Source of the DNA: a plasmid
Reading direction: 5' to 3' (one strand)
Sequence record: NZ_CP119397.1
Length of the DNA stretch: 64,000 nt
Within the stretch, counting starts at the first letter, position 1. Every line of letters begins with the position of its first letter. Shown here piece after piece: positions 19,935 to 22,444 of the stretch. Position numbers and translations under genes: made by a program. The notes beneath the pieces are model-generated. The model was not told the DNA's origin, did not search any database, and saw only the letters and a program-made list of their open reading frames with translations.

Positions 19935-20301
19935 GATGAATATACCTGAGCGTTTTAATGACGGCAGGCGCCATAGAGTGTGTTTCAGAGAGAGAAAACC
20001 AGCCTGTTTCACTGACTTCATTTCCCGGCGTGCAGGGAGGTAATGTATTCATCGTATAAAGATAAAGATGAACAAGGTCGCCCCCATCATGGCTTGGTCC
20101 GATGATATCAGTCAGAAAACGAATATCCTCAATAGTGACAGAAATAGTAAGTTCTTCGTAAAGCTCACGCAGGAGTGCCGATGCCGCGTCTTCGCCTTCC
20201 GCTATTTTTCCGCCGGGGAAATACCATAATGTATTATTTCTTACGCGGACGAGGAAAACCTTGCCATCCTCAATATAGACGAGGCTCGCACAATGAATCA
20301 C
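19924..20301 (-). CDS. NUDIX hydrolase
   Basis: Nudix box GGKIAEGEDAASALLRELYEELTI (GX5EX7REUXEEXGU). 125 aa. Overlaps the upstream HpaB-like gene by about 30 nt if the first ATG is used. Confidence 0.8.
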   Translation of the reverse strand: MIHCASLVYIEDGKVFLVRVRNNTLWYFPGGKIAEGEDAASALLRELYEELTISVTIEDIRFLTDIIGPSHDGGDLVHLYLYTMNTLPPCTPGNEVSETGWFSLSETHSMAPAVIKTLRYIHHGL

Positions 20302-21721
20302 GATAGATCCTTTTAATAGTATTCAGATGCTGGAATATCTCTTCTTTTGGGTAATTGGCATAATGCATCGCTGCAATACGGATAGGATCACCCGCATGGT
20401 ACTTTTCATAAACCATCTGCCGCTGCCCAAAACCGTCACCGCTCAAATCCCATGCCAGATTTAACAGAAAACATCTCTCACCGGCATTTAACGACGTGGT
20501 GCGGAGTGATTCTTCTATGACGGAAGCATTCTCATTGCTGAAATCACCCTGATGCGGCACCGCCAGCATCGAACCGGCAGAAAGTGACTGAATAATTGTG
20601 ACCATCCGCTGATACCATTTAGGAAAATGATACCGGACAGCCTGAATGGCATGAATGCTGGGGTTAAGCAGGTCGTTCTCGCTGACAGCGTCCTGTTCCG
20701 CCAGGAGAATGGCACCCCGCACCAGCTCAAGGCAGGATGTCATCTCGCCTAATTGTTCCCTGACGTTCAGGAAACCGGTGAGCCCCATTTTGTCAGCCAG
20801 TTCGATGGCCACCCCGGTAAGCAGTTCAGCTTTTGACAACCCGCGGACGATCCCCTGGTGCCCGTTATGATTGCGGATGCGCGTTTTGTCATAAAAGGCG
20901 TTGGATTTTTCAACGTCCCGGAAGACAAATACGTCCTGCCAGGGGATAAAGACGTCATTAAACACCATGTAAGCATCTGATTCATCGAACAGGTTTGCCA
21001 CAGGGTGATCGAAAAGGCTGTAACCTGCGTGTTGCAGGGGCTTACGGCATATCAGTTTGACGCCTGATGCCGTCACCGGTACCGCAAAGGCAATGGCAAA
21101 GTCCTCATCGCCGGGCACCAAACCGGGCATGTTGAAAATCAATAATTCATCTGCAATAGGTGCCAGCGTGACGATCATCTTGGCGCCGGAAACCACCATT
21201 CCTTTCTCATCTGATGACACCACACGCACGCCACAGAAATTATTCTTCTGCGAGCCCAGTGGGGTGCCCCGGTCAACCTGCGGGTTGATGGCACCATGAC
21301 CGATAAAAAGATGATGGCGGCGGCATTTTTCATAGTATTTCACCGCATTATCTGAAAAGTCAGCAAATTGTCCTGACCCTAACACGTGGGCATTGTTAGC
21401 CATGGCCGCCAGCGCACAATTGATAAAGTCAGGTGTCCGGCCAAGCATACCGAAAGAGAGGTCGGCAATAGCTTTGTAACTGGCTCTTTTTCTTTTCAGA
21501 TCATCATGATTACGCGGCATCAGGGTGCTGATATGATATGACACCCCGTTTTCCTGATAAGTGAATCTGTCAGGCTGGGATTCCTGCAGATGATAATACT
21601 GCGCAATATTGTCAATCGCCCCCTGAAAGGCCGGTTCCTCAGACACGTCTGTTACCAGCCGGGAATCAATATAAACCTGTCTCGGTGTTTTAACTCTGCG
21701 AAGAAAATCTTCTTTTAACAT
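20270..21721 (-). CDS. HpaB-family flavin-dependent monooxygenase, oxygenase component (two-component system)
   Basis: 483 aa. Length and sequence features resemble 4-hydroxyphenylacetate 3-monooxygenase large subunits. Located next to a Fre-like flavin reductase gene. Confidence 0.7.
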   Translation of the reverse strand: MLKEDFLRRVKTPRQVYIDSRLVTDVSEEPAFQGAIDNIAQYYHLQESQPDRFTYQENGVSYHISTLMPRNHDDLKRKRASYKAIADLSFGMLGRTPDFINCALAAMANNAHVLGSGQFADFSDNAVKYYEKCRRHHLFIGHGAINPQVDRGTPLGSQKNNFCGVRVVSSDEKGMVVSGAKMIVTLAPIADELLIFNMPGLVPGDEDFAIAFAVPVTASGVKLICRKPLQHAGYSLFDHPVANLFDESDAYMVFNDVFIPWQDVFVFRDVEKSNAFYDKTRIRNHNGHQGIVRGLSKAELLTGVAIELADKMGLTGFLNVREQLGEMTSCLELVRGAILLAEQDAVSENDLLNPSIHAIQAVRYHFPKWYQRMVTIIQSLSAGSMLAVPHQGDFSNENASVIEESLRTTSLNAGERCFLLNLAWDLSGDGFGQRQMVYEKYHAGDPIRIAAMHYANYPKEEIFQHLNTIKRIYRDSLCEPRLY

Positions 21722-21733
21722 ATATCGTTCCCA

Positions 21734-22444
21734 CTAGTGATTGTCTGAAATTATTCTTTGTTGATTGACGCCCATTAAGCAAAGTTTATCTTTAAGCATC
21801 TGAAAAAAATTGCGGCCACTGCCTATGTAAAAATTCGACAGAGAGAAATGTGGCTCATGAATCTGCTGAAGTACATGGGTAATGAAGCTGTTGTTCCGGC
21901 CGGCATACGCTTCCTCTATGGACATAAACCTAAAGTCAGCAGATTTTTCTATAAGGGTGTTGAGATACGGCATATCAAAAGGCGTATGTCCCGTCTCATT
22001 TATTGAGATCAATAAAGTTGGCTGTTTACTCTCATTCCCTGCAATATATTCAGCAATACCTCTTACATAGCTATAACCTGAATCGCAGGCAATAAGCACA
22101 TTGCCATAGTCAGACCGTCGCCAGTAGGCATGGCCGCAGGCTTCTGAAATGTATATCTCCTCGCCTGAAAGGATATCCAGGATAATTTTGTGGGAAGCGG
22201 ATAACCACTCATTGAATCTGATCAGTAATTCTACGACAGCCGGATCATTGTCCGAATAAGGGCCTTTCCGGGATAATACCGAAAAGTATCTTCCCGGCCC
22301 CTTACCGCACCTTATCATGACGTACTGTCCGGGTAAGTGAGTAAAGCCGACAACGCTGATTTTGACAATATAAGTATAAGGATCTATTTTTTCAGCTTGC
22401 GCATTTAACGCTTTCAACAATACATGCTGGCTATCACAGACCAT
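21734..22444 (-). CDS. NAD(P)H-flavin reductase (Fre-like, FNR fold), partner of the HpaB-like oxygenase
   Basis: Co-linear with E. coli Fre. GQYVMIR...RYFS matches the RxYS FAD motif, LIACDSGYSYVRGI matches ILIAGGTGFSYARSI, and FYIGSGRNFFQMLKDKLC matches IYIAGRFEMAKIARDLFC. Confidence 0.7.
   Translation of the reverse strand: MVCDSQHVLLKALNAQAEKIDPYTYIVKISVVGFTHLPGQYVMIRCGKGPGRYFSVLSRKGPYSDNDPAVVELLIRFNEWLSASHKIILDILSGEEIYISEACGHAYWRRSDYGNVLIACDSGYSYVRGIAEYIAGNESKQPTLLISINETGHTPFDMPYLNTLIEKSADFRFMSIEEAYAGRNNSFITHVLQQIHEPHFSLSNFYIGSGRNFFQMLKDKLCLMGVNQQRIISDNH

Follow-up and report, generated by a model that had tools for sequence, protein, structure and literature searches.

An HpaB-family oxygenase and a non-canonical Fre-fold partner in a conserved, mobile gene cassette

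The closest described relatives of the oxygenase considered here are the 4-hydroxyphenylacetate (4-HPA) hydroxylases of Thermus thermophilus (HpaB/HpaC) and Geobacillus (HpaB), represented by entries 2yyg–2yyj and 9lft of the Protein Data Bank (PDB). HpaB-fold oxygenases also occur within biosynthetic clusters, as in the SgcC/SgcE6 pair of C-1027, in which SgcC (4oo2) acts on carrier-protein-bound β-tyrosine. Here, we analyze a 64,000-nucleotide stretch of plasmid DNA (sequence record NZ_CP119397.1; hereafter “the window”), which carries a tightly packed string of nine genes on the minus strand. According to the open reading frame (ORF) listing, the first two encode a Fre-fold protein of 236 aa (21734–22444) and an HpaB-family (group D) flavin-dependent oxygenase component of 483 aa (20270–21721), and they are followed by genes for a NUDIX hydrolase, an M24 metallohydrolase, an SbnA-like enzyme dependent on pyridoxal 5'-phosphate (PLP; Pfam PALP), paralogues of PyrD and PyrE, an SbnI-like protein, and a LOG-family protein. 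On balance, we favor the view that the first two proteins form a two-component flavin-dependent monooxygenase, which gives the oxygenation step of a conserved, mobile, two-module cassette.

The window oxygenase resembles the Thermus and Geobacillus enzymes (31–34% identity) in its fold, its two Pfam domains, its Arg/His pair, and its probable separate reductase. However, it differs from these enzymes in that it scores below the equivalog cut-offs, has F/M/P at the 4-HPA contact positions, is accompanied by a Fre-fold protein rather than an HpaC (PF01613), and does not lie in a catabolic context. It shares with SgcC (27% identity) the HpaB fold and a place within a cluster that is probably biosynthetic, but the window contains no carrier protein, and a gene for adenylation and peptidyl carrier protein domains (A-PCP) is found only in the Sphingorhabdus cassette. 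The 236-aa protein is comparable with E. coli Fre and Vibrio LuxG (1qfj), which are also two-domain proteins of about 230 aa with the FNR fold and an R-x-F-S motif, and its gene, like that of LuxG, adjoins the gene of a flavin-dependent oxygenase. Unlike Fre and LuxG, it has no Pfam match and carries C-D-[ST]-G in place of GGTG.

Two further systems are instructive. In the established pairing of staphyloferrin B biosynthesis, SbnI makes O-phosphoserine and SbnA uses it in a β-replacement. The window likewise combines, in one cluster, a probable SbnI-type serine kinase (compare 5uje) with a putative SbnA-type O-phosphoserine-dependent PLP enzyme (compare 5d84). In contrast to the staphyloferrin B cluster, it has no siderophore synthetases, its SbnI-like protein is a short form, and its SbnA-like enzyme falls below the cut-off of TIGR03945. 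Because there is no SbnB, the window does not encode the canonical route to L-2,3-diaminopropionate. RutA/RutF is a two-component flavin monooxygenase that acts on a pyrimidine ring with its own reductase, and it would offer a functional parallel to the present pair, should this pair act on a pyrimidine. The fold of RutA is luciferase-like rather than that of HpaB, RutF belongs to PF01613, and the Rut system is catabolic and has no SbnA, SbnI, M24, PyrD, or PyrE partners.

The oxygenase and its Fre-fold partner

The 483-aa protein scores 248.7 bits against Pfam HpaB_N (cut-off 35) and 150.7 bits against Pfam HpaB (cut-off 25), and its closest solved structures are T. thermophilus 2yyg (E = 5.8e-87) and the Geobacillus 4-HPA hydroxylase (E = 3.1e-79). 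Its AlphaFold2 model (predicted local distance difference test score, pLDDT, 90.3) has the three-domain HpaB fold. In Foldseek comparisons, this model reaches a template modeling (TM) score of 0.92 with both 9lft and 2yyi (root-mean-square deviation of about 2 Å) and of 0.90 with SgcC. Because the Pfam scores lie far above the gathering cut-offs and the fold matches, the protein falls inside the HpaB family; the profile scores, the predicted fold, and the catalytic Arg/His pair all agree with the assignment made in the preliminary description of this DNA.

In T. thermophilus HpaB, we take R100 and H142 to be the catalytic Arg/His pair that activates the substrate hydroxyl, and Y104, S197, and T198 to be the residues that hold the hydroxyl and carboxylate of 4-HPA. 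The pair is conserved in the clade of the window protein, with R95 kept in 66 of 66 members and H142 in 65 of 66. The three contact residues are replaced by F99 (65 of 66 members), M198, and P199 (both 66 of 66), and the loop F-N-M-P-G-L is invariant across all 66 close clade members. The protein also lies below the cut-offs of both equivalog models for 4-HPA 3-monooxygenases (TIGR02309, 364 bits against 480.2; TIGR02310, 200.5 bits against 885.2). Because it scores below these cut-offs and its substrate-contact residues are replaced, it is not a 4-HPA hydroxylase. It is an HpaB-family oxygenase belonging to a cassette-specific clade, and one may not presume that it acts on a phenylacetate-type aromatic, a point that had previously been overlooked. 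The HpaB gene is under purifying selection, with a ratio of nonsynonymous to synonymous substitution rates (dN/dS) of 0.03–0.06. In lactic acid bacteria, HpaBs of the sister clade showed no informative gene context among the loci scanned.

The two ORFs are separated by 12 nt, both begin with ATG, and their coordinates are exactly those first reported; the 483-aa protein is identical to a recorded protein of Chimaeribacter arupi (P0001). As proposed previously, the 236-aa protein aligns co-linearly with E. coli Fre, its residues 18–223 matching Fre 11–215 (1qfj; phmmer, E = 5.5e-6). Its AlphaFold2 model (pLDDT 86.7) has a two-domain FNR fold, and the top Foldseek match is again Fre 1qfj (E = 4.4e-15, TM score 0.75–0.78, 23% identity). 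The flavin motif R52-Y-F-S55 aligns with R-P-F-S of Fre; it is therefore of the form R-x-F-S, and not R-x-Y-S as first read. Within the family, the motif is conserved as E-R-[YF]-F-S, with R, F, and S invariant in 11 homologues. This family is tiny: 5.8 billion proteins contain only 12 clusters of it, each of them annotated as hypothetical, and a profile search of 1.84 billion representatives returned about a dozen strong matches followed by a tail of ordinary Fre-like proteins of about 230 aa. The 236-aa protein is also under purifying selection (dN/dS 0.16–0.24), which is more relaxed than that on HpaB.

The strongest argument for a reductase role is the linkage to HpaB. A distant Fre-like protein in another organism (P0143; 20% identity, Y-D-T-G at the GGTG site) is encoded immediately 5' of an HpaB-M24-PALP cassette, and so is a second one (P0139; 23% identity, R-D-A-G), whereas a third, P0142, does not adjoin such a cassette. 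In the Pseudomonas cassettes, a PF01613 flavin reductase stands in place of the Fre-like protein; such non-orthologous replacement of the reductase is a common trait of two-component systems, and the overall pattern is the one expected for an exchangeable two-component reductase. We consider that the 236-aa protein probably acts as a reductase, its dinucleotide specificity aside, and that it almost certainly works together with the 483-aa protein.

Several observations weigh against a reductase role. The 236-aa protein has no Pfam match even at E ≤ 5, including FAD_binding_6 and NAD_binding_1, and it fails all curated thresholds, scoring 57.5 bits against the NCBIfam Fre model NF005963 (cut-off 230). 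The GGTG dinucleotide motif of Fre, which is present in the canonical relatives P0145 and P0146, is replaced by C120-D121-S-G, a change conserved in the family as C-D-[ST]-G, and W-G-G-R of Fre is replaced by S-I-N-E. Binding of NAD(P)H may therefore be altered or lost. In addition, the cassettes of Bacillus, Paenibacillus, Vibrio, and Staphylococcus contain no reductase gene at all. The earlier designation “Fre-type NAD(P)H-flavin reductase” thus stands as far as the Fre/FNR fold, the flavin motif, and the adjacency to HpaB are concerned, but it was too strong; because GGTG has given way to a conserved C-D-[ST]-G, the use of NAD(P)H is unproven.

It is accordingly possible, although rather unlikely, that the 236-aa protein has ceased to be an NAD(P)H:flavin reductase and serves as a flavin-binding or other accessory protein, such as a flavin carrier, a partner that works with another reductant, or a regulatory subunit, with housekeeping reductases feeding HpaB. 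The invariant Cys120/Asp121 in place of the first two glycines of GGTG and the altered second NAD(P)H-site motif would suit such a change, as would the missing Pfam domains, an evolutionary rate 4–5 times that of HpaB, and the fact that most cassettes work without an in-cluster reductase. On the contrary, the fold and the flavin motif are retained, the position directly 5' of HpaB is kept across very divergent lineages, and the role is filled by a PF01613 reductase in Pseudomonas. Furthermore, an Asp at the GGTG site recurs in all cassette-linked lineages, which suggests that the site is adapted rather than decayed.

A conserved and mobile cassette

The preliminary description of the pair was right in outline, but it overlooked the conserved partner genes, namely those for the NUDIX protein, the M24 hydrolase, the SbnA-like and SbnI-like proteins, the PyrD and PyrE paralogues, and LOG. 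To define the cassette, we used 78 loci from a genome scan and three loci fetched earlier, and searched them with the window proteins using tblastn. HpaB is at least 47% identical in 24 of these loci (the close loci) and more distant in 57. The M24 and PALP genes lie beside HpaB in all 24 close loci, and these also contain NUDIX (18 of 24), the orotate phosphoribosyltransferase (OPRT, the PyrE paralogue; 17), the dihydroorotate dehydrogenase (DHODH, the PyrD paralogue; 15), and LOG (11). None of the six was detected in any of the 57 loci with more distant HpaBs.

Gene tables show the same cassette in Pectobacterium, the B. cereus group, Vibrio, Paenibacillus, a metagenome-assembled genome (MAG) of Rickettsiales, Staphylococcus, and Xenorhabdus, and it is also present in Photorhabdus and Pseudomonas. 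Several cassettes encode an SbnI-like serine kinase, a small transporter of the YdcZ, PQ-loop, MFS, or LysE type, or the two together. In the Firmicutes (Bacillus and Staphylococcus), a full-length SbnI-like gene lies directly 5' of HpaB; the 253-aa ORF at this position in Bacillus was considered as a diverged Fre and rejected, as it is SbnI-like. No cassette includes PyrF, and neither the window operon nor any of the examined cassettes contains an SbnB-type (ornithine-cyclodeaminase-like) gene.

The cassette is mobile and has been transferred horizontally. It is found on plasmids of 280–435 kb in the B. cereus group, where it adjoins preT/preA, and on plasmids of Staphylococcus, Macrococcus, Sphingobium, and Gloeothece. 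The closest relative is in Xenorhabdus griffiniae (locus L087; HpaB 90% identical), inside an integrative element that also carries antirestriction genes and genes for integrases, TraI, and TraG; this copy may be decaying, because its SbnA-like gene is split into two ORFs (13004–14033 of the locus). The cassette is absent from all 5,426 complete E. coli genomes searched. In RefSeq, its genes bear generic names only, a full-text literature search found no paper on it, and no curated family describes it. The Photorhabdus 4'-thiothymidine cluster (PMC12691670) was considered as the same system and rejected, since it is a different, radical-SAM cluster.

Two loci illustrate how the cassette can be extended. 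On megaplasmids of the B. cereus group, such as p30052_1 of B. cereus (L092, 1–14000), it is accompanied by the dihydropyrimidine dehydrogenase genes preT/preA, by a second NUDIX gene, and by genes for a HAD hydrolase and a protein dependent on flavin adenine dinucleotide. A distant cassette from a Logan assembly (L089, 2111–15455) comprises, in this order, genes for a phosphoribosyltransferase, a Fre-like protein, HpaB, M24, PALP, DHODH, a 5'-nucleotidase, and NUDIX. It is preceded by genes for an aminotransferase, a Lys/Orn N-oxygenase, and a PLP enzyme of Cys/Met metabolism, and by a gene resembling that of ketoacyl synthase III (KAS III); the cluster may be larger there.

In the window, adjacent operon genes overlap or are separated by 10–12 nt. 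The NUDIX gene (19924–20301, minus strand; 125 aa, GTG start; Pfam NUDIX 54.7 bits, cut-off 21.1), which was omitted from the earlier gene list, overlaps its neighbors on both sides, with 32 nt at the HpaB stop and 11 nt at the M24 start, and in the Rickettsiales MAG a NUDIX domain is fused to HpaB (P0080). The M24B prolidase-like metallohydrolase (18729–19934, minus strand; Pfam Peptidase_M24 125.6 bits, Creatinase_N 38.5 bits) has 401 aa from its probable start at 19934; the ORF reaches 20021, but homologues are 398–405 aa long, which makes the later start probable. It matches the proline dipeptidase 3q6d in the PDB with 124.5 bits, with the five D/D/H/E/E metal-ligand motifs aligned. The SbnA-like β-replacement enzyme (17699–18718, minus strand; 339 aa; Pfam PALP 181 bits) scores 286.9 bits against the SbnA family TIGR03945 (cut-off 349.95). 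Its best PDB match is SbnA 5d84 (187.4 bits), and it keeps the equivalents of R132, Y152, and S185, which we take to be key residues of SbnA.

The PyrD paralogue (16647–17702, minus strand; 351 aa) is a class-2 (quinone) DHODH that exceeds the cut-off of NF003645 (411.5 bits against 366) and keeps the motifs AAGFDK, RYGFNS, NLSSPNT, and SNTT. It is closer to the rat and human mitochondrial DHODHs (282 and 273 bits) than to E. coli PyrD (247 bits). The PyrE paralogue, an OPRT (16016–16666, minus strand; probable start 16666, ORF reaching 16690), exceeds the cut-off of TIGR00336 (155 bits against 106.8), matches E. coli PyrE 1oro over its full length (172 bits), and keeps the phosphoribosyl pyrophosphate and loop motifs. 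The SbnI/SerK-like ParB-fold protein (15583–16011, minus strand; 142 aa, ORF reaching 16050) belongs to a family whose profile matches SbnI 5uje (E = 3.6e-23) and the free serine kinase 5x0b (E = 1.7e-12) in the PDB, with the DGxHR motif and an upstream Glu invariant; by homology, it is a probable L-serine kinase that makes O-phospho-L-serine. The last gene encodes a LOG-family nucleotide 5'-monophosphate phosphoribohydrolase (14644–15207, minus strand; 187 aa; TIGR00730 184.9 bits, cut-off 96.35; Pfam Lysine_decarbox 147 bits). It is separated from the SbnI-like gene by a 375-bp gap (15208–15582) with a terminator-like hairpin at 15446–15430. The same gap holds a ydcZ transporter gene in Photorhabdus, Pectobacterium, and Xenorhabdus, and neither this gene nor a remnant of it was found in the gap in the window. 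A reading of the operon as a defense system was rejected, as eight of its nine proteins matched no anti-phage model in PADLOC and the NUDIX protein matched only the generic candidate PDC-S07 (51 bits).

The operon sits in a block of about 50% GC (about 14.5–23.06 kb) between flanking DNA of 60–64% GC. A 19-nt imperfect direct repeat (16 of 19 positions; 14521–14539 and 22815–22833) brackets this island and may be an insertion scar or a chance match. In a separate patch of 39% GC, a 644-aa ORF with a hydrophobic N-terminus (10151–12085, minus strand) looks like another horizontally acquired gene.

Upstream of the operon, an intergenic region of 644 bp (22445–23088, minus strand) separates it from a LysR gene. 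This stretch had been described as a 640-bp AT-rich leader; it is strongly AT-rich only in the proximal 200 bp (22445–22644, 26–32% GC), the remainder having 47–57% GC and the whole 43.6%. A scan with the sigma-70 consensus found no convincing minus-strand promoter in 22445–23088, and the operon promoter probably lies within the proximal AT-rich 200 bp. A riboswitch or leader RNA was rejected because there was no Rfam match at E ≤ 1 in 22300–23300. The LysR gene (23952–23089, minus strand) is co-directional with the operon, has a host-like GC content (59.6%), and is followed by a terminator-like hairpin (23038–23023). Its reading frame appears to shift by 1 nt in a CCCGG run near 23143, and the alternative frame gives a typical LysR C-terminus that ends at 23063; either the gene is a pseudogene or the sequence contains an error here. 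The gene is probably host DNA outside the cassette, and it is probably not the cassette regulator, because the LysR genes of other cassettes are unrelated and differently placed.

Proposed chemistry and its rivals

Starting from the families and folds of the encoded proteins, their linkage, and the mobility of the cassette, we infer a reductase activity, a substrate, an order of steps, and a product. The 483-aa HpaB protein would use reduced flavin and O2 to oxygenate its substrate, with the 236-aa Fre-fold protein as its dedicated, highly divergent flavin-reducing partner. In an amino-acid module, the SbnI-like kinase would convert L-serine to O-phospho-L-serine, from which the SbnA-like PLP enzyme would attach a 2-amino-2-carboxyethyl group to a nucleophile, and the M24 metallohydrolase and HpaB would complete the module. 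The product of the PLP step would not simply be L-2,3-diaminopropionate, because there is no SbnB partner. In a nucleotide module, the PyrD and PyrE paralogues would carry dihydroorotate through orotate to orotidine 5'-monophosphate (OMP), accompanied by NUDIX and LOG; these two proteins, and the HAD hydrolase and 5'-nucleotidase of other cassettes, presumably act on nucleotides. PyrD and PyrE without PyrF may provide extra flux to orotate and OMP, or else may be resistant enzyme copies.

HpaB-type enzymes attack electron-rich ring carbons beside an ionisable OH or NH. The C5 position of an orotate- or uracil-type ring, or of a mimic of it, would thus be a chemically natural target, which favors a pyrimidine-related oxygenation. 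The likeliest substrate of HpaB would be an electron-rich N-heterocycle, either an orotate- or uracil-type pyrimidine or a serine-derived mimic ring, and the pathway may end in a non-proteinogenic amino acid related to pyrimidines or in an antimetabolite of the nucleobase or nucleoside type. In this general form, we hold with moderate confidence, on the predicted functions, that the oxygenation is a step toward an amino acid, base, or nucleoside related to pyrimidines. The preT/preA extension on the B. cereus-group megaplasmids is another pointer to pyrimidine-ring chemistry.

Other observations do not favor this proposal. The link to pyrimidines is drawn by gene association alone, and the PyrD and PyrE paralogues look fully canonical and could be resistance copies. 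In the Pseudomonas and gamma-MAG cassettes, which have no nucleotide module, the HpaB-M24-PALP core is joined instead by genes for an Asn-synthetase-like enzyme and an MFS transporter; among these variants, an SbnI-like gene was detected in the gamma-MAG locus only. The proposal does not account for the role of the M24 hydrolase, the SbnI-like protein of the window is without the insert of about 90 residues of the full-length forms, and the window copy of the cassette has no transporter.

Several more specific routes were considered. One possibility is a willardiine-type alkylation of uracil, which leaves the M24 enzyme unexplained and was not adopted as the lead. A D-cycloserine-like logic through O-ureidoserine was not adopted, since the PLP enzyme is nearer to SbnA than to DcsD (187 against 140 bits) and there is no ATP-grasp enzyme; it is also disfavored because the M24 protein, in contrast to creatinase, retains its metal ligands. 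We likewise did not adopt another de novo pathway leading to dihydroorotate, because the atoms do not map.

A bolder idea, which we regard as improbable, is a new route from serine to a ring that mimics dihydroorotate or orotate, ending in an emimycin-like pyrazinone N-oxide or another new nucleobase antimetabolite. In such a route, O-phosphoserine and an amino acid would give an N-(2-amino-2-carboxyethyl) amino acid, which would close to an oxopiperazine-carboxylate lactam. The PyrD and PyrE paralogues would then dehydrogenate and ribosylate the lactam, the HpaB/Fre-like pair would oxygenate the ring at N or C, and LOG, a 5'-nucleotidase, or a HAD phosphatase would free the base or nucleoside.

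The main rival to the two-module proposal assigns biosynthesis to the amino-acid module alone, which would turn serine into a mimic of dihydroorotate or orotate. PyrD, PyrE, NUDIX, and LOG (elsewhere HAD or 5'-nucleotidase) would then provide self-protection, as duplicated targets and as enzymes that dismantle toxic nucleotides. The variability of the nucleotide module, up to its absence in Pseudomonas and the gamma-MAG, is consistent with this explanation, and so are the constant exclusion of PyrF, the retention in PyrD and PyrE of every canonical motif together with scores above the equivalog cut-offs, and “exit” enzymes (LOG, HAD, or 5'-nucleotidase) that vary by lineage. On the contrary, two or more paralogues of one pathway would be unusual for resistance by target duplication, and the nucleotide genes are translationally coupled with the biosynthetic genes in a fixed order. 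The fusion of HpaB with NUDIX in one lineage also suggests that NUDIX acts in the pathway. We consider self-protection a serious but minority explanation and retain the two-module proposal. The last candidate, an ordinary catabolic 4-HPA or phenol hydroxylase with unrelated neighbors, finds a basis in the database annotation “4-hydroxyphenylacetate 3-hydroxylase family protein” and in the closest solved structures, but it is very improbable, given the scores below both HpaB equivalog cut-offs, the F/M/P replacements of Y104/S197/T198, the strict M24 and PALP linkage in 24 of 24 loci across phyla, and a neighborhood with no hpa or meta-cleavage genes.

The oxygenase is thus a new subfamily member of a well-known kind, and its partner is a real, non-canonical Fre-fold protein. 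By itself, such a pair would attract little notice, since two-component monooxygenases of the HpaB type are familiar, and the interest lies mainly in a conserved, mobile, uncharacterized cassette that extends across phyla and is marked by this HpaB clade. The combination of serine O-phosphorylation and β-replacement with extra PyrD/PyrE and nucleotide-dismantling enzymes points to an antimetabolite directed at pyrimidines or to an unusual amino acid, and the carriers of the cassette are bacteria associated with plants, insects, and skin. The island of 8.6 kb is small enough for heterologous expression. The conserved, unexplained replacement of the dinucleotide-binding glycines makes the Fre-like partner a candidate for a new reductase variant. 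If the route through a serine-derived mimic is true, the oxygenase clade would be the first of the HpaB fold dedicated to such an N-heterocycle, and the C-D-[ST]-G Fre-like proteins would represent a new reductase subtype.

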